From the IMG/VR virus record IMGVR_UViG_3300049893_000773, positions 1-64,000 of that record: a stretch of 64,000 nt of DNA. The stretch is one strand, 5' to 3'. Both the position numbers and the translations under genes were made by a program. Below the pieces are notes generated by a model. That model was not told where the DNA came from. It saw only the letters and a program-made list of their open reading frames with translations, and did not search any database. Shown in pieces: positions 4,361 through 16,330 of the stretch (its first letter is position 1; the number at the start of each line of letters is the position of its first letter). The DNA is from a virus.

Positions 4361-7300
4361 ATGAAAATTGCTCACATTTCCGACATTCACTGGATGGGAC
4401 TCTCGCGACACGAGGAGTACACTCGGGCTTTCACAATCCTGTTCTCCAAGCTTCGTGAGATCCGACCCGATGCAATCTTCCTGGGGGGAGATTACTTCCA
4501 CACCAAGACTTCTGGCATCTCCCCCGAGGTGATCGACCGTCTTGCCTGGATGTTCAAGTCCTTTGGGGATATTGCTCCGACGCATGCTATCCTTGGCAAC
4601 CACGATGGTAACCTCGCCAACGAAAGCAGGGAAGATGCCATTTCGCCTATTGTGAAGGCGATGGACTACGACAGGGTAAAACTCTACAAGGGTTCCACCG
4701 AAGTGGACATTGGAGACTTCAACTCAGCCGAGGTTTGCCTTTGCGTGTTCTCTTGCTTCGATAAATCCGGCTGGAACGAGGTTTGCCCGGTTGAAGGGGC
4801 TATCAACATCGCTGCATTCCATGGCTCCGTTGGTGGATCGACCATGGACAATGGCTGGATCATGCCGGATGCCAAGGCAGAGGTCCAACTCTCGATGTTC
4901 GATGGTTACGACTTCGTACTCCTGGGAGACATTCACAAGCGTCAGTTCCTTGCCGAGAGACGGGACAAGAATGGGGTGATGAAGCCTTACGCAGCCTATC
5001 CCGGCTCCTTGATTCAGCAGAATCATGGGGAGGATGAGGTCAAGGGTTTCCTTTTGTGGGATATTCGGGCAAAAGATGACTGGGACGTTGAGTTCATCGA
5101 AATTCCCAACTCCCAACCATTCTTGACGATCCCATGGATGGGGTCCGCTCAAGAGACCGCCGATGCCGTTTCGGCTGTTCGAGGCAAGATCCTCCCAGGC
5201 TCTCGGTTCAGGGTGGATTCGGTTGCTCCCTTGCTTTCCGCCGAACAGCGTCAGGTGGAACAACTCTTGCTCCAGGCATTCAAGGCCGAGTCGGTGTGCT
5301 TCCAATCGAAGCTCAAGAACCGTTATGACTCAGTGACCACCGGAGAAACAACGGTTAAGAAGTCGTCCCTGCGGAACAGTCCCGACGTGATGCGTGCGCT
5401 CTACGCTCAATTCCTTAATGGGAATGTCAAGAAGTTCCCGCTTTCTCCAGAGCAAGTTGAGCTTGGGAACGCTTTGATTGACAAGTTCATGGTCAAGGCA
5501 AAGGACACCGAGAAGGAGACCGTCCGTGATGTTTCATGGAGCCTGAAGAGCATCGAGTTCGACAACCTGTATCGGTATGGCCCAGGCAACAAGTTGAATC
5601 TTGAGGTCCTTGATGGCGTGGTTGGCGTATTCGGCAAGAACAAGACAGGCAAGAGCAGCCTTGTGGGTGCCCTCCTCTACACCCTTTTCAATGGCTCGGA
5701 TCGAGATGGGATTACACGCAACGGCCACATTATGAATCAGTCCAAGAACCACTGCCAAGCGAAGGCTGTGATCAGTGTTGACGGGACGGATTACGTGATT
5801 GAACGCAGTTCTGCCCGTACAGAGCTTCCAAAGAAGGGAAAGAAGTCCGGGGAGCAATTCGACCCAGAGAAGACGGAAACCAAGCTGTCTTTCTACCGCC
5901 TTACACCGTCTGGAAGGGTGGAACTGAATGGCATCAACCGAGAGGACACCGACAAGGCTATCAGGAGGCTGCTGGGGAGCCCAGATGACTTCCTGGCCAC
6001 CTCCGTGGCAACCCAAAGACGCATGGAATCCTTCATTGATGAAGGACCGACGGCAAGAAAGACGATCCTCAATCGCTTTCTGGACCTGGAGGTCTTTGAG
6101 ACGCTTCATTCCTATGCAAAAGAGGAAACAGCGTCCTTGACAGCAAAGATGGCGGCTCTCCCTCTGATGGACCAAGAGGAGGGTGAGGCGTTGAATGACA
6201 AAATTGCCGAGCTTGAGAAGGACATCTCAAACATCGACAACGACCTCGTTGAATTTCGAGCTTTGGACGCTCAACAGCAAGGTTGGTTGGCGAAGAATGA
6301 CACCCTTCACATCAACCGGAACCTGAACGCCCTTCGGGAGGAACTCGCCCAGAAGAAGCAACTCTTGAGCAAGTACAAGGTCCAGCGGGTCACGTTTGCC
6401 CAGAATGTGGCAGCTATGAAGGAGAATATCGCTGCTTTCTCGGCCAAGATCGAGCGCACCAATCCAGCGGAATTCACGGATGGCGTCAAGAGGTTGGCCG
6501 AGTTGACAGCCAAGTTCAACACGACTGACGGCTTGGTTCGTGAGGTGTCCGATCGCCTTCAGAACCAGGAAAAGAACGTGCGGAAGCTGTCCTTGGTTCC
6601 GTGCGGGGACAGCTTTCCTGAGTGCCGGTACATCAAGGATGCCCATGAAGACAAGAAGATCCTGGGCAACACACAGCAAAAGCTGGCCGAACTCTCTTCT
6701 GTCCTCAAGGAATTGACGGAAGCCGTGAAGGCAGAGAAGGAGCAGCGTTTTGCTGAGAAGCTTTTGCAGTACAACGAGGCAAAGTCGAAGCTTCAACTCC
6801 TTGAGGCCAATCTCAAGACCGAGGAAGCCAAACTTCAATCTCTGGACAACCTGGAGGTTGTAGCAGCGGAAGCCGTGGCCCGTTTGATCCCCCAGGTGGA
6901 AGAGCTTGAGGCGGAACTCAACACCTACAACCTGGAAGCCATCAAGGAAATGGAACGCAAGTGCCGAGAGTTGAAGGATAAGCTAGCCTTCATGGAGCGG
7001 CAGAAGGGAGCCAACGTTGCCCTGCTTGCCAAGCTCCAGGTTCGTCAAGAAATGATGGAAAAGGCCGCTGTTGATCGAGAGGCTCTTGCGAAGGAATTGA
7101 AGGTTCTGGAGTCTGTCCAGGCTGCTTTTCACCGAAATGGCATCCCGGCAATTGTCCTGAAGACTCAACTCCCTGCGATCAATCAGGAAATTGACCAACT
7201 CCTTGGAGGGTTGGTGGACTTCCGCATCATCTTCGAGACGGAACCCGGCTCCAACTCCCTTGACATCCTGATTGAGGATGGTCATTCCAAGAGGCCATTG

Positions 7301-11419: not shown

Positions 11420-12283
11420 ATGAGCCACGAAGACCATTTCCCTACCGACCGAGCCGCTCCACGCTACCGTCAACGTTCCCCTTCCATTCTCTACCGAGAA
11501 GGCACCGGACTGATGGAAGACAAGGAGCTTGCTGCTGCCCAGCGGCACTTTGTGACCTACAGGAGCCGCATGACGGTCACAGGCAACGAACTGGTCATTG
11601 GGAGGTATTCGGTGCTCCCTTACTACAGGGAGTTGGAAGCTGACATCTCCTCTGTGGGCGGGAAGCTCATCAACTCCTACAAGCAGCACAGGTACGTGGC
11701 TGATATCCAGAATTACGCTGCGGACCTGGATGAGATGACCCCAAAGACCTGGAGTTGGAGGGAATTCCCCTATCTCCCCGACATGCCGATGGTGCTCAAG
11801 GGAGAAACCAACAGCAAGAAGGACAAGTGGGACACCCACATGTTCGCCCAGACCAAGGAGGATGCCATTGCCGTTTACCAGCGGTTGATGGATGATTCCC
11901 TCCTGTCCCGTCAGGAAATCTACGTTCGGGAGTATATCCCGCTCAAGAAGCTCGGAGTTGGACTCCATGGTCAACCCATCACGGTGGAGTTCAGGTTCTT
12001 CATTCTCCACGGAGAGGTGGTTTCCAGCGGCTTCTACTGGTCAAGCCACCTGGGAGACATCCAAGAGGTCCCCACGCCCTCTATGGTCCCCCAGGGGTTC
12101 CTACGGGATGCTATTGACAAGGTGAAGGACAATGTGAACTTCTTCGTGATGGACGTTGCCCTCACTGAAAGCGGTCGATGGATCGTCATTGAGTTGAATG
12201 ACGGCCAAATGGCTGGGTTGTCCGAGAATGACCCGGATGTCCTGTACGGCAACATGAAGAAGATGCTCTGGAGGAAAGAATGA
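11420..12283 (+). CDS. ATP-grasp protein (R2K/DUF4343-like)
   Basis: EFRFFILHGEVV, FFVMDVA...WIVIELNDGQMAG. Confidence 0.7.
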   Translation: MSHEDHFPTDRAAPRYRQRSPSILYREGTGLMEDKELAAAQRHFVTYRSRMTVTGNELVIGRYSVLPYYRELEADISSVGGKLINSYKQHRYVADIQNYAADLDEMTPKTWSWREFPYLPDMPMVLKGETNSKKDKWDTHMFAQTKEDAIAVYQRLMDDSLLSRQEIYVREYIPLKKLGVGLHGQPITVEFRFFILHGEVVSSGFYWSSHLGDIQEVPTPSMVPQGFLRDAIDKVKDNVNFFVMDVALTESGRWIVIELNDGQMAGLSENDPDVLYGNMKKMLWRKE

Positions 12284-12948
12284 TGGACAATTTGCACATT
12301 GCCCTGCCGAAATGGCCCTGCATGTATGTTCATGGAGCCTCGATCACTGTCGATCAAGCGAAGGAGGTGATCCGTCGAAGTGACTTGTGGTTTCGTGGAT
12401 TGTACGGCTCGGATAACGCTAGGTTCAAAAAGCTGGCGGTTGATTTCGGTTTTAAGCCGCTCGATGGATACTCTTCGGAGGAATTCTGGGCTGCGATGAA
12501 CCGCCGAGAACAGTGGCAGAAGGAATGGGGTTTGCTGGAGGCCGAATACCTGTTTACCGACTGGATCTGTTCCTCATACATTGGCGGCCCCAATGGATGG
12601 TGCAATCCTGATGGAACGATTTACTCGTTTCACAACGTCGGAAAGTGGCCTTCTCCTGAAGGTCTTATTCGGGATTGGAAGAGAGTCGCTGAAGCATTCC
12701 CATTCCTGACGTTGACTGCTGTCATCGGGGACAGGGAGTGTCACGAGAAGGACATTTCCCCGGTTATGCAGATTGAGGTCGCTAACGGCTCGGTCCATAG
12801 TGTGTATCCCCGTCGTGAGCTTTTCCCCATGTACAAGGAGACTGCGATCACTGACGTGCAAAACTGGCCTTCCTGTGGCATTTCAGAGGAGTGGCTCCAG
12901 GAATGGGCTGCTAAGTCAAGAGGGATCTTGACAAGGCTCGGAGGGTGA
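12280..12948 (+). CDS. Hypothetical protein
   Basis: ATGA overlap with the previous gene and an RBS; Trp-rich (GPNGWCNPDG, NVGKWPS). Confidence 0.6.
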   Translation: MMDNLHIALPKWPCMYVHGASITVDQAKEVIRRSDLWFRGLYGSDNARFKKLAVDFGFKPLDGYSSEEFWAAMNRREQWQKEWGLLEAEYLFTDWICSSYIGGPNGWCNPDGTIYSFHNVGKWPSPEGLIRDWKRVAEAFPFLTLTAVIGDRECHEKDISPVMQIEVANGSVHSVYPRRELFPMYKETAITDVQNWPSCGISEEWLQEWAAKSRGILTRLGG

Positions 12949-12961
12949 CCTAGACTACTTA
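12928..12961 (+). promoter_or_regulatory. Overlapping sigma70-type promoter and TACTTA late motif for the RNA cluster
   Basis: TTGACA (12928-33), 17-nt spacer, TAGACT (12951-56); TACTTA at 12956-61. Confidence 0.6.
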
Positions 12962-12969
12962 GTATCAAC

Positions 12970-13321
12970 GGGCGCGACCCGGTTTCGACGTGGATAGCAA
13001 AGGATTGACAGCGTGACGGCAGGCGTTGGTACTGCCATAAAGATTCCGACAAAAACACAAGGCGCTGAAGAAGCCCTCCCTCTCGCTGCTTGATAGCACG
13101 AGACACTGCCTGAGAGCTCTGTTCGGGCGTTCAGAGCAGTGATTCAATCGAACAAGGTTCCCCAAGATGCTTGTGGTAGGGAGAACCGAGATACTACAAG
13201 ATCCTCCCCTGAAAGCCCCCTTGTTGGCGTTTAGACGGAGTACAATAGCAAGGAAGGTCACGTAGGAAAGTTGATTCAGAGGTATTCGCGGACCTGAGTT
13301 CGACTCTCAGCGCGTCCACCA
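12970..13321 (+). ncRNA. ssrA: tmRNA
   Basis: 5' GGGCGCGA...GGTTTCGAC; 3' T-arm CTGAG-TTCGACT-CTCAG, then CGCGTCC-ACCA with a G3:U70 pair. Internal tag ORF ...GAEEALPLAA ends in tandem stops TGA TAG (13061-13096). Confidence 0.92.
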
Positions 13322-13322
13322 C

Positions 13323-13426
13323 GGGTGTGTAGTTTAGAGTATCCCACGATTCTGGCGCCGGAATCTTGGGAGCGGGAGAACGGGGGCCGAAAGCCCCAAA
13401 CGTTGGTTCGAGTCCAATCACATCCA
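13323..13426 (+). ncRNA. Atypical tRNA-like RNA (Ala-type acceptor, hairpin-expanded D-loop, non-canonical anticodon arm)
   Basis: Acceptor GGGTGTG/CACATCC+A; D-stem GTTT/GAAC; arm GGGGC-CGAAA-GCCCC; T-arm GTTGG-TTCGAGT-CCAAT. Confidence 0.7.
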
Positions 13427-13478
13427 CCCATCATTCTCAGCCATGCTTGAGTTACTCTTCAAGTGATTCTGTGCTATC

Positions 13479-13709
13479 TTGCTTATGAAAGGCAAGGTAG
13501 TTGTGAGCGGCAAAAGCGACAAATGCAAGAGTTGCGACTCAGAGATGGTCACGTTTGAAACCCACCAAATGACGATGGATTACACCTCGTGCTATTGGTA
13601 CGAGGATGGCAAGAAAGTTGAAGGCAGTCACTCCGACTTTGGTCTTGGTGGAAGTGATAGCTTCTACATCACCTTCTGTCCCAATTGTGGCAAGGTTGAT
13701 GGTTTCTAG
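13479..13709 (+). CDS. Small zinc-ribbon-like hypothetical protein
   Basis: CKSC...CPNCG; start codon uncertain. Confidence 0.5.
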   Translation: MLMKGKVVVSGKSDKCKSCDSEMVTFETHQMTMDYTSCYWYEDGKKVEGSHSDFGLGGSDSFYITFCPNCGKVDGF

Positions 13710-13721
13710 ATTCAAACCCAA

Positions 13722-13845
13722 GCCGCTGGTTTGGCTTGATTGCGGTTAAAGTGGGTTGGAGGCTACTCGATCCTCCGACCATCATGAGCCAGGGTGATCG
13801 AGGCCCTGGTGGGACCCTAAGACTGCAATCATCTGTTTGGGCGGC
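13722..13845 (+). ncRNA. Putative structured RNA (three-way junction with complementary loops)
   Basis: 11-bp stem 13737-47/13821-31 encloses two hairpins whose loops CTCGAT and ATCGAG are complementary. Confidence 0.55.
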
Positions 13846-13882
13846 AACTAATTTCTCTCCTATCTATGAGATAGAGGCAAAT

Positions 13883-14146
13883 ATGCGTTCCGGTTCTCAG
13901 ACTCGCTACAAGAGGTACAAGATGGGTCACCTTCCAGGTGATCTTCCTCATCAATGCAAGGCGCGTCTCCTGGAGTACAGGGAGGGCAAATCTCTTCCTG
14001 AAGAGGACGAGTGGAGGGTGAAGGGTTTCAAGAAGGACCAACATCTTCGAGCCGAGGGGGCTTTTCGACGTTCAGAGAGGGCTGAGATTGAGGAGTTCCT
14101 GGAGGAAGAGGAAGAGCAAGAGGAACTGGAAGAGAACGCTAGTTAG
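13883..14146 (+). CDS. Small basic/acidic hypothetical protein
   Basis: GAGG RBS upstream of ATG 13883; acidic C-terminus. Confidence 0.5.
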   Translation: MRSGSQTRYKRYKMGHLPGDLPHQCKARLLEYREGKSLPEEDEWRVKGFKKDQHLRAEGAFRRSERAEIEEFLEEEEEQEELEENAS

Positions 14147-14153
14147 AAAACAC

Positions 14154-14226
14154 GGGGCCATAGCTCAGTTGGGAGAGCGCGACAATGGCATTGTCGAGGT
14201 CGTCGGTTCGAACCCGACTGGCTCCA
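14154..14226 (+). tRNA. tRNA-Ala (GGC)
   Basis: Canonical cloverleaf: GGGGCCA/TGGCTCC-A, anticodon arm CGACA-ATGGCAT-TGTCG, T-arm GTCGG-TTCGAAC-CCGAC. CCA is not encoded. Confidence 0.95.
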
Positions 14227-14233
14227 CTTCAAA

Positions 14234-14425
14234 ATGCTGAATTCCGACTTCATCATCAATGGCGGAAGGTGCCGCAAGTACGAGGGGTATACGGCCCCTA
14301 ATCAGTCCAAGGTGGTCACTGCCTTGAAGCTGTTGGTTCTTGCCCTGGTCGTTCCACCATTCGCTCTGACGATGTGTCTCGTGGACAAGCTGAGCAACCG
14401 TAGGAAGAAGCAACTCAAGGGCTAA
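14234..14425 (+). CDS. Small putative membrane protein
   Basis: 63 aa with one hydrophobic stretch and a basic tail. Confidence 0.4.
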   Translation: MLNSDFIINGGRCRKYEGYTAPNQSKVVTALKLLVLALVVPPFALTMCLVDKLSNRRKKQLKG

Positions 14426-14464
14426 TTTGGCAACAAACCAGCTTCTTGCTTGCAGACTAGGCTC

Positions 14465-14728
14465 ATGCAAATTCAATACAACTGGAACGGGATGAAGCGT
14501 GGCCGTCCTGTCAAGCTGATTCGTAATGTGTACAACCGCATGGACGGATCGCCTTATGGCGGGATCTACTACGAGGAGCCGGGGCATTTGATTGCTGAAC
14601 GTGGGTGGATTGGTAGGTTCATTGCAAAGACACCAAAGGGTATCTTGGTGGAGTTCCACACACCAACCGGAGGAGTCCTGGGGTTGGTGCTTGATGAATT
14701 CGCTGTTGAGCTCTATGTACCTGCATGA
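14465..14728 (+). CDS. Hypothetical protein
   Basis: ORF with ATGA overlap into the HNH gene. Confidence 0.5.
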   Translation: MQIQYNWNGMKRGRPVKLIRNVYNRMDGSPYGGIYYEEPGHLIAERGWIGRFIAKTPKGILVEFHTPTGGVLGLVLDEFAVELYVPA

Positions 14729-15369
14729 CCGTAAGGTGGTCCTCCTATACTGACCAGGAGTTGATTGAGGCTGTAAAGCAATCAAACAGTCTTCGGGGAG
14801 TCGTGGAGGCCCTTGGCTTGAACTCCCGAGGAGGAGAATCGACGAAGAGGGTAGCTCGTCGGATAGCAGACCTTGAGTTGGACACAAGTCACTTCAAGTT
14901 CTCTCATTCCTCCAGGGAATCGACACCGGCACCACCAGTTGGAACTGTCGCCAACAGGCAGCAACGGTTGTTGAAGTTCATCCTGGTGGAGAAGTCCCCG
15001 CTCGACAATCTTCGTGGTCATCGCAGGTCCCTGGTTGCTATGGGCATCCTGACGGATTACTGTGTTGGGTGCGGTAAGAAATCCATCTCCAGCTTTGGAG
15101 AGGAGAAGAACATCCCGCTTCAAATTGACCATATCAATGGCGATAATCGCGATAATCGACCTGAGAACCTGAGACACCTTTGCCCCACCTGTCACTCCTT
15201 GCAACCAACGGAAGCTGGGAGGAAGTCAAAGGGAAGAAAAAGGAAGCAGCAAAGTGACAGAAGATCAACAACTCCTGGAACTACTCAGCAAGAAACTGCA
15301 TGCCGAGTCCGCAGCGAGGGGAGCCTGGGAAGCCAGGGGACCGAAGGATCAGTGGCTTGTTCTGCTTGA
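14725..15369 (+). CDS. HNH endonuclease
   Basis: CVGCG...LQIDHINGDNRDNRPENLRHLCPTCH; N-terminal YTDQELIEAV...LGL helix-turn-helix-like segment. Confidence 0.85.
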   Translation: MTVRWSSYTDQELIEAVKQSNSLRGVVEALGLNSRGGESTKRVARRIADLELDTSHFKFSHSSRESTPAPPVGTVANRQQRLLKFILVEKSPLDNLRGHRRSLVAMGILTDYCVGCGKKSISSFGEEKNIPLQIDHINGDNRDNRPENLRHLCPTCHSLQPTEAGRKSKGRKRKQQSDRRSTTPGTTQQETACRVRSEGSLGSQGTEGSVACSA

Positions 15370-15457: not shown

Positions 15458-16330
15458 ATGCGAAAAGACATGTTCAAGGTGATCGTCGAAAGGCCCAGGG
15501 CCTCGGGTCGTACTCCCACCAAGACACCCACCCGTGCGGCTGTGGCCCGTGCTGAGATGCAGCGGATCATGCACGAGGGGTACGAGGAAGACGAGGATGG
15601 TGACGCCTACACCGCAGACAACACCCTCAAGACCTTTGAGCCCATCAAGAGCCGGTACGACGATCACAGGTCGTTGAATGAGAACTTGGCTCCCCTCCTC
15701 CGTTTCTTGGAGAAGAGCATTGGACGCCCCTGGGATGAGGTCTACTCGGAGGTCAGGGAGCACTTGAGGCTGGACAGTGCCGTCCAGTTGCACGTTGTGC
15801 AGCACCTCAACTGGACGGTCACTGAGAAGACCTACATGGGCGAGGATGGGCACGTTTACGCCACCGACCGTTCTTGGCATCGCTACAACAACAACAACGC
15901 CTTGGATCTTCCCAACCCCTTTTCTCGGCACAACTACTACGTCCACCCCGAGACGAAGCTCCTCTGCCGTCAGCCACACTTGAGCAAAAAGGCCCGACGT
16001 GCCAAGGAGGTCAAGGTTCTTTCCCTCGACAAGTACCGTCAGTTCCGTTTGATCGACGGGAAGTGGATGGTGGTGGAGTTGGCTGATGTCGAGGCTGGGA
16101 ACCCCTTCCAGGCTCGGAAGGGATTCGTCTTGAAGTACGACTACAAGACCCAGAAGACCTACTCCTACCCCAACTACGACTTCCCGGACGTGCTCTTTCC
16201 CAATGGACTCAAGGGGGAGAAGCGTTATGATGAGTATGGAGACTACAACCTCTACGCCACCGTTATCCGCGACGTTGGTGCCCGTGAACAGAAGGTTTTG
16301 GAAGCCTTGCTGAAGAAGGAAGCCGAATGA
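15458..16330 (+). CDS. Hypothetical protein (MRKDMFKVIVERPR N-terminus)
   Basis: Strong ORF with phage-like codon usage; function not recognised. Confidence 0.65.
   Translation: MRKDMFKVIVERPRASGRTPTKTPTRAAVARAEMQRIMHEGYEEDEDGDAYTADNTLKTFEPIKSRYDDHRSLNENLAPLLRFLEKSIGRPWDEVYSEVREHLRLDSAVQLHVVQHLNWTVTEKTYMGEDGHVYATDRSWHRYNNNNALDLPNPFSRHNYYVHPETKLLCRQPHLSKKARRAKEVKVLSLDKYRQFRLIDGKWMVVELADVEAGNPFQARKGFVLKYDYKTQKTYSYPNYDFPDVLFPNGLKGEKRYDEYGDYNLYATVIRDVGAREQKVLEALLKKEAE

Follow-up and report, generated by a model that had tools for sequence, protein, structure and literature searches.

A covarying three-way-junction RNA with complementary hairpin loops in the tmRNA/tRNA cluster of an uncultured freshwater phage

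It is long established that phage clusters of transfer RNA (tRNA) and transfer-messenger RNA (tmRNA) genes harbour additional small stable RNAs of unknown function, such as rnaC and rnaD of phage T4, which are presumably processed from the cluster transcript. A three-way junction in which two adjoining hairpins are joined by a loop-loop contact is characteristic of the purine riboswitch, and the Alu 5′ domain of signal recognition particle (SRP) RNA likewise combines a three-way junction with two pairing hairpin loops. Here we describe a structured RNA element at about positions 13708–13851 (plus strand) of a 64,000-nt stretch of viral DNA, referred to below as the window, which is the first 64 kb of the 87.7-kb IMG/VR record IMGVR_UViG_3300049893_000773. 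The element lies in a tmRNA/tRNA cluster, folds around a three-way junction bearing two hairpins with complementary loops and, on the best reading of the evidence, belongs to the class of phage small stable RNAs as a new family. Among phage RNAs of related design, the packaging RNA (pRNA) of phi29, as outlined in PMC4201828, measures ~120 nt, has a three-way junction and a pair of loops complementary to each other, and joins its 5′ and 3′ ends in a long helix. PMC12286853 presents ROOL and GOLLD as phage RNAs of unknown function, often located near tRNA islands, that have conserved kissing loops and form homo-oligomers.

A sequence-only reading of the window had proposed an outer GCCGC/GCGGC pairing (13722–13726/13841–13845), an 11-bp stem (13737–13747/13821–13831), hairpins A (13754–13762/13772–13780) and B (13789–13794/13804–13809), and the loop words CUCGAU (13766–13771) and AUCGAG (13797–13802). 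All of these were found where it had placed them, and the non-Watson-Crick pairs in the stems of the window sequence are indeed all G·U. The minimum free energy fold of 13710–13890 (RNAfold) is the same three-way junction, at −63.5 kcal/mol (z = −2.28), with 7 of 200 shuffled sequences folding as well. The minus strand of the same region gave a weaker fold (−53.1 kcal/mol, z = −1.45), about 10 kcal/mol short of the plus strand. Taken alone, such predicted energies would be modest evidence.

We consider the comparative evidence, drawn from homologous sequences, decisive. A conserved 290-aa protein encoded nearby led to three related IMG/VR loci (L002, L003 and L004). In BLAST comparisons, the tmRNA gene (~91% identical in L002 and L004) and a tRNA-Ala gene were kept in all three loci, and the match to the element amounted to just 27 nt at its start. 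Reading of the sequences revealed that L002 and L003 each carry a full homologue of the element with strongly diverged stems. In an alignment of the window, L002 and L003 (128 columns), 81 columns are invariant, comprising the outer stem, both strands of a G/U-rich internal loop, the junction strands and both loop words. RNAalifold returned 37 pairs, 13 of which have changed on both sides with pairing kept (four in P1b, five in P2 and four in P3, as named below), and when the loop-loop helix is included in the structure, pairing holds in 97.7% of 129 cells. Shuffling gave 4.3 ± 1.6 double-change pairs, none of 500 shuffles reaching 13, and sliding the partners by 1–3 columns (six registers) gave 1–3. 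The stem helices P1b, P2 and P3 thus keep their pairing through 13 double changes. Moreover, the L002 sequence alone folds into the same junction, P2 (9 bp) and P3 (7 bp) have the same lengths in both lineages despite the turnover of their sequences, and the G·U pairs are formed on the plus strand only. Together, these comparisons indicate that the element encodes a real folded RNA, on the plus strand.

The conserved unit (~13708–13851) consists of 14 single-stranded nucleotides, a folded core (13722–13845) and a short tail. It begins with the conserved, single-stranded 5′ flank AGAUUCAAACCCAA (13708–13721), which is followed by a rod, P1, of ~25 positions, made up of P1a, the invariant, symmetric G/U-rich internal loop and P1b. 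The 5′ strand of P1a (13722–13727) pairs with 13840–13845 and is invariant in all copies, so that covariation speaks neither for nor against this helix. The 5′ strand of the internal loop (13728–13736) lies opposite 13832–13839; its GGUUUGG core (13728–13734) is invariant between the window and L002/L003, and 13735–13736 differ. P1b (13737–13747 with 13821–13831) comprises 11 bp in the window and seven pairs in the consensus, with both sides changed in four. The first junction strand, J1/2 (AAAGUG, 13748–13753), may contribute the junction pairs 13750–13818, 13751–13817 and 13753–13816, a predicted helix (RNAalifold helix 3) that never varies. Hairpin P2 (13754–13780) has a 9-bp stem (13754–13762/13772–13780), in which five of the nine pairs have changed on both sides without any change in stem length, and a loop, L2 (13763–13771), holding the invariant word CUCGA (13766–13770). 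J2/3 (AUCAUGA, 13781–13787) is nearly invariant; its residues 13782–13785 may pair with 13811–13814 as a lower part of P3, a pairing that covariation does not confirm and of which one cell (pair 65–93) is broken in the window. Hairpin P3 (13788–13810) has a 7-bp stem (13788–13794/13804–13810) with four pairs changed on both sides and a loop, L3 (13795–13803), holding the invariant word UCGAG (13798–13802), complementary to L2. J3/1 (GGGACCCUAA, 13811–13820) is mostly invariant, with 13819 changed from A to G in L002 and in the variant described next. The 3′ strands (13821–13845) then complete P1b (13821–13831), the internal loop (13832–13839, with a UGUUUG core) and P1a (13840–13845), and likeness to L002 and L003 ends at about the end of the 3′ tail (13846–13851).

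A third, closer variant of the element was found in a contig of run X4; the statements made here cover six differences within the element among those listed for that contig. Two of them exchange one kind of pair for another, U·G becoming C-G in P2 (13757 T>C) and U·G becoming U-A in P1b (13821 G>A). The others fall on the first nucleotide of L2 (13763 C>T), on the last nucleotide of L2 (13771 T>A), on the junction (13819 A>G, as in L002) and on position 13829 (T>C). Between the window and L002/L003, identity across the element is 63% (81 of 128 columns), as against ~91% for the tmRNA and 86% for the 290-aa protein. On the simplest reading of these figures, the element would have come by mosaic exchange from a more distant phage, at a recombination-prone spot. 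Such an exchange predicts more diverged members of the family, beyond the reach of patterns built on exact words.

The flanks set the element apart as an island. Upstream sequences are unrelated in four arrangements (window, L002, L003 and X4), and all converge at 13708. The window has a 76-aa Cys-rich open reading frame (ORF) there (13479–13709, plus strand), unrelated to the genes at this place in the relatives; X4 has 72 foreign letters and rejoins the window exactly at 13708; L002 (2370–3153) has three small ORFs, namely DUF4031 and two orphans; and in L003 (281–832) an endonuclease gene (PHROG endonuclease / endonuclease VII / HNH) has been inserted and the DUF4031 gene is truncated. In L004, which comes from the same record as L017, the corresponding interval (4413–4950) is marked by a 637-nt deletion: the equivalent of L002 2607–3243 is missing, which removes two ORFs and element positions 1–73 and leaves the 3′ half beside an intact tRNA-Ala gene. 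Gene turnover has a hot spot in the tmRNA-to-element interval. On the 3′ side of the element, similarity stops near 13851; an ORF follows in the window and X4, and tRNA-Ala directly in L002 and L003. Given the variable flanks and the shared start at 13708, the element amounts to a conserved island, comparable with the adjoining tmRNA and tRNA genes, and the arrangements suggest a region reshuffled by mobile small genes around fixed RNA genes.

The sequence-only reading had named translation from TTG 13736 among the findings that would speak against its proposal. This frame is indeed open in the window and in frame with ATG 13883, and on that basis the element could be taken for the N-terminal part of a 136-aa protein. 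The same frame, however, has four stops in L002 and L003, and conversely the frame that is open in L002 and L003 has four stops in the window. A 1-nt indel separates the lineages in L2, the substitutions pair across stems, and among the listed X4 differences third codon positions account for 2 of 6 in the element versus 7 of 11 in the downstream ORF. The comparison indicates that the element is non-coding and that the frame from TTG 13736 is no gene, and we give the coding alternative practically no weight. An annotation risk is thereby corrected, as the open frame from TTG 13736 invites a gene call.

The downstream ORF itself (13883–14146, plus strand, 87 codons for amino acids) is probably a real gene. 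Besides the preference for third codon positions among its listed differences in X4, a 12-nt deletion in that contig is in frame and falls in the acidic tail. Its product is basic in the N-terminal half and very acidic in the tail. The ORF is absent from L002, L003 and L004, has no relatives in IMG/VR and belongs to no Pfam or PHROG family; look-alikes in the Protein Atlas all scored <0.9 and were not used. These results characterize it as lineage-specific and not as a conserved partner of the RNA.

This bears directly on the proposal that the element is a riboswitch or other regulatory leader of the 87-aa ORF, in which a ligand bound at the junction would control a hairpin over the ribosome-binding site. 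That hairpin is present as the sequence-only reading had described it: 6 bp (13860–13865/13869–13874) closed by a 3-nt loop, followed by the Shine-Dalgarno-like AGAGG (13873–13877) before ATG 13883. The hairpin feature as a whole (13860–13877, plus strand) includes half of AGAGG, so that part of the site is covered; the topology of the element resembles that of purine-type aptamers, its junction nucleotides are conserved, and X4 retains both the element and the ORF. The hairpin is nevertheless confined to the window lineage and lies outside the conserved RNA. In two of the three aligned copies, L002 and L003, both ORF and hairpin are missing, an unrelated 10-bp hairpin takes the place of the latter and the tRNA gene comes next. 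The hairpin over the ribosome-binding site shares no nucleotides with P1 and none of its sequence competes with that helix, P1 is too long and stable for a switching helix, no terminator was found in 12700–14800, and the ORF has neither IMG/VR relatives nor a family. The likeness to the purine riboswitch (RF00167) extends to the three-way junction, the two side-by-side hairpins with complementary loops and the conserved junction strands. In contrast to that riboswitch, the element has loops of 8–9 nt with five Watson-Crick pairs, a P1 of ~25 positions with a G/U loop, and neither an expression platform nor a conserved downstream gene, and neither variant of it matched the RF00167 model at E up to 10 under lax filters. 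With no conserved downstream gene, a P1 that forms a long rod and no terminator, we abandon the suggested link between a riboswitch-like element and the hairpin at the ribosome-binding site, and regard control of the 87-aa ORF as very unlikely.

A known family had also been considered as an explanation. Scans with Rfam 15, covering all 4227 families, gave no match to the element at gathering scores, nor at E up to 10 on 12800–14400. With the laxest filters and the element alone, the sole hits scored 10.8 bits (minus strand) for the window and 12.8 and 8.6 bits for L002, all at E >5. Among the families without a match are SRP RNA, T-box, Y RNA, and hammerhead, twister-sister and other self-cleaving ribozymes; unlike SRP RNA, moreover, the element stands without the rest of that molecule. 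A three-way junction with conserved nucleotides and a loop-loop contact recalls the architecture of the hammerhead, and the element might on this ground be a self-cleaving ribozyme of an undescribed class. Given that even the most lenient filtering, with E values of up to 10 admitted, brought no match to an Rfam ribozyme model and that the sequence carries no sign of a cleavage site, we consider this highly improbable. As far as these searches reach, the element is an uncatalogued family.

The family presently comprises three full copies (window, L002 and L003), one read-derived variant (X4) and one truncated remnant (L004). Candidate loci were tested with a model of the element, R1. Four pattern scans of viral contigs returned only L002 and L003, the L004 remnant and chance hits; of the loci so retrieved, L005 and L006 coincide with L002 and L003, L134 is the L004 remnant, and the chance hits (the 10 loci L007–L016, and L049) were rejected by R1. 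A pattern scan of metagenome contigs yielded 84 stretches, and none of the 80 listed loci matched R1 at E up to 1; among genome contigs, none of 31 loci matched. In 32 loci around distant homologues of the 290-aa protein, R1 matched the known remnant only, and nine whole records of those distant phages gave no R1 match. A blastn search with both variants against 50,697 GenBank phage records gave no match, and a 1-kb query against these records recovered tRNA-Ala only, in seven of them. PMC10690425 reports 8,495 candidate structured RNAs from IMG/VR v3; no description of the element was found in the literature, in a search that lay outside the supplementary candidate tables of that paper.

Three further identities were tried for parts or the whole of the element and set aside. 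A Y RNA of the YrlA type would be expected beside a TROVE protein (PF05731), of which there is none in the 87.7-kb record, although the absence is weak evidence from a record that is ~25% complete by CheckV; a paired Ro-site-like helix was likewise not found. A minus-strand tRNA-like gene came into question through a word resembling a T-loop in the L002 5′ flank; neither ARAGORN nor Rfam gave a call, and the word is not kept in the window. The 5′ flank, with CAAACC in the window and CGAACC in L002, might also clamp the two U-rich loop strands in a triple helix; the pairing can be drawn for both lineages, and the idea rests on one A-to-G change.

The sequence-only reading had further claimed a perfect 6-bp match between the two hairpin loops. 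Five of these pairs, formed by CUCGA (13766–13770) and UCGAG (13798–13802), stand, being invariant in all copies including X4; the sixth, U13771:A13797, is specific to the window and is lost in L002, L003 and, through 13771 T>A, X4. With shuffled or random loop pairs, a complement of at least 5 nt arose in 2–4% and one of at least 6 nt in 0.3–0.9%, so that the match, once its conservation is counted, is hardly a product of chance and a loop-loop pairing is plausible. Set beside the RF00167 fold, in which the loops of P2 and P3 are in contact, the element has helices that covary and loop-loop pairs that are complementary yet invariant. As far as the sequences are concerned, pairing within one molecule and pairing between molecules fit alike.

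The element could accordingly be read as a self-assembling RNA whose loops pair between molecules, hand in hand as in phi29 pRNA or through quaternary kisses as in ROOL and GOLLD, to form a dimer or ring. Both loop words are parts of a palindrome and each contains the self-complementary UCGA, the computed duplexes L2:L3 and L3:L3 come to −7.8 and −5.2 kcal/mol, respectively, and helix lengths are strictly conserved. The layout resembles that of pRNA as outlined in PMC4201828, and homo-oligomerization through kissing loops is reported in PMC12286853 for phage RNAs near tRNA islands. The element shares with pRNA (RF00044) a phage origin, the topology and a similar size, a resemblance in topology only: there is no match to the pRNA model, and the element sits in a tmRNA/tRNA cluster and not at a genome end. 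In pRNA, the loops pair from one molecule to the next, and the RNA works in a packaging motor that stands in for part of the usual terminase machinery; the phage studied here is a giant one and encodes a T4-type large terminase (Pfam PF03237), so that a packaging role of the pRNA type is not expected. ROOL and GOLLD (RF03087, RF01998/RF02032) are 4 to 6 times larger, with many domains, and their models do not match either. P2 and P3 leave the same junction at similar lengths, which also fits a contact within one molecule. We therefore hold a self-assembling RNA to be unlikely. An equally doubtful proposition is that it would be a small natural RNA of the pRNA kind outside the phi29 family; in a phage that packages its DNA with an ordinary terminase it would serve another purpose, for example by scaffolding or caging RNAs or proteins connected with translation, and the helix lengths, loop words and G/U loop would then be its geometric and docking determinants.

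The genes around the element all lie on the plus strand. The cluster opens with the tmRNA gene (12970–13321; Rfam RF00023, 110.9 bits against a gathering score of 47), preceded by a σ70-like promoter sequence, TTGACA-17-TAGACT (12928–12956, plus strand), which is the candidate start of the transcript bearing the element. A like site precedes the tmRNA gene at the same place in L002 (1948–1976). In 12700–14800, one promoter-like site was found where 1.2 ± 1.2 are expected, a count that is not significant by itself, and there are no terminator-like sites. Directly upstream of the element, no conserved promoter-capable sequence is present. As the sole promoter-like site lies before the tmRNA gene and no terminator follows, we infer read-through from the tmRNA promoter and subsequent nucleolytic release. 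A metatranscriptome run from the plastisphere (X17) contained a 211-nt contig identical to tmRNA 13099–13309, in a kind of library that may contain DNA; this one run also yielded tRNA-like pieces and no contig over the element, which weighs neither way on its expression.

The same setting could accommodate a structured leader that acts in cis on the processing or stability of the operon transcript; it would direct the maturation of tRNA-Ala or protect neighbouring RNA from nucleases, and would have no function as a free molecule. The distance from the element to tRNA-Ala in L002 and L003 is ~30 nt with only a hairpin between, no internal promoter or terminator was detected in the transcription unit around it, and the P1 rod is long and nearly continuous. 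The window and X4, however, have a 264-nt ORF within the ~300 nt before the tRNA gene, and L004 retains tRNA-Ala without an intact element. In addition, the invariant loops, junction and internal loop together with exact helix lengths exceed what a nuclease barrier needs. A purely cis-acting role thus seems improbable to us.

T4 rnaC (species 1) and rnaD (species 2) provide a parallel in context, being non-tRNA RNAs in a phage tRNA cluster by a homing-endonuclease gene (AF158101). The likeness is one of context class and not of a homologous family: the best R1 score in AF158101 69500–73000, with filters off, was 6.8 bits (E ~1), and rnaC has a tRNA-like fold with a T-arm and no kissing three-way junction.

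We favour a stand-alone structured RNA of ~130–145 nt (13708–13851) that kisses in cis and acts in trans, a reading to which we assign a probability of roughly 55%. The suggestion that the element is an independent non-coding RNA in the phage RNA cluster has held up, with a covarying fold, no Rfam match, a non-coding sequence and a position as a conserved island. The element would be transcribed within a stable-RNA operon (tmRNA, tRNA-like RNA, small ORFs, element and tRNA-Ala), probably from the promoter-like site at 12928–12956, and would be excised from the operon transcript by host nucleases. L2 and L3 would pair within one molecule and thereby fix P2 beside P3. The resulting rigid scaffold may present the invariant nucleotides of the junction and G/U loop and act in trans on a partner, either a protein or another RNA. 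Whereas the stems have changed, most invariant columns fall within the loops, junction and G/U loop, which points to a constraint on the unpaired parts.

Several observations weigh against this stand-alone, trans-acting RNA. As its five kiss pairs never vary, it is their conservation and complementarity, and nothing more, that speak for the kiss, and two of the three aligned sequences as well as X4 lack the sixth pair. With the self-complementary UCGA present in both words, pairing between molecules is equally possible by sequence. In the absence of a matching change at 13739, which is not among the differences listed, the X4 change 13829 T>C would disrupt an A-U pair. The comparative signal stems in essence from a single contrast, window type versus L002/L003 type, plus the six listed X4 differences. 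In L004, the loss of element positions 1–73 means either that the RNA is dispensable or accessory there or that this contig is a defective variant. Finally, no partner, target or ligand is indicated: an antisense action through the G/U loop was considered and rejected, as complements of the loop are at chance level in the window (25 vs 21.2 ± 4.9 and 15 vs 19.0 ± 4.5 expected).

The record as a whole places the element in its biological setting. CheckV estimates a completeness of ~25% at 87.7 kb, which implies that the host genome of the element is that of an uncultured giant freshwater phage; near-identical or related contigs were found in freshwater-sediment and freshwater metagenomes from three studies (runs X2, X3 and X4). 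In addition to the terminase, the phage encodes a dCMP deaminase, an R2K ATP-grasp protein and a Cpn60 chaperonin. Ahead of the cluster, a 222-aa ORF (12280–12948) has no relatives in IMG/VR. The X4 contig has 643 extra letters within the 3′ part of the tmRNA gene (13293–13313), replacing 19 nt, which could be a mobile element such as an intron or endonuclease cassette. The tRNA-like RNA (13323–13426, plus strand; Rfam tRNA 40.1 bits, no ARAGORN call) begins 1 nt past the tmRNA 3′ end and has a long insert of ~39 extra nt in its D region; it is missing in L002, L003 and L004, is covered by the X2, X3 and X4 contigs, and in its context recalls T4 rnaC, which likewise folds with a T-arm.

Beyond the element, tRNA-Ala(GGC) (14154–14227, plus strand; ARAGORN, Rfam 63 bits), which adjoins the 3′ side of the element in L002 and L003, is followed by an HNH endonuclease gene (14725–15369, plus strand; Pfam HNH_3, PHROG 10822, E 3.9e-33). 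The HNH gene is kept downstream of tRNA-Ala in L002 (3694–4326), a parallel to segB inside the T4 tRNA cluster. The element was also considered as a leader of a homing-endonuclease gene and rejected in that role, since the next gene is a tRNA or the orphan 87-aa ORF and the HNH gene lies beyond tRNA-Ala. The conserved 290-aa ORF (15458–16330, plus strand) has relatives in IMG/VR. Closer relatives of its protein are present in other assemblies, among them P0005 (84% identity; 129.6-kb contig), P0006 (74% identity; 297-kb contig) and P0011–P0018.

To the extra small stable RNAs of phage tRNA/tmRNA clusters, the element adds a compact, well-defined case: it is ~130 nt long, its fold is backed by covariation, and its loops, junction and internal loop are invariant. 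A molecule of this size lends itself to direct biochemistry, from probing and native gels to crystallography, cryo-EM and pull-downs. Pairing of the loops in trans would make it a second natural class of small self-assembling RNAs; pairing in cis would make it a new aptamer-like scaffold, and through its partner the ways in which giant phages interfere with host translation or RNA metabolism could come to light.

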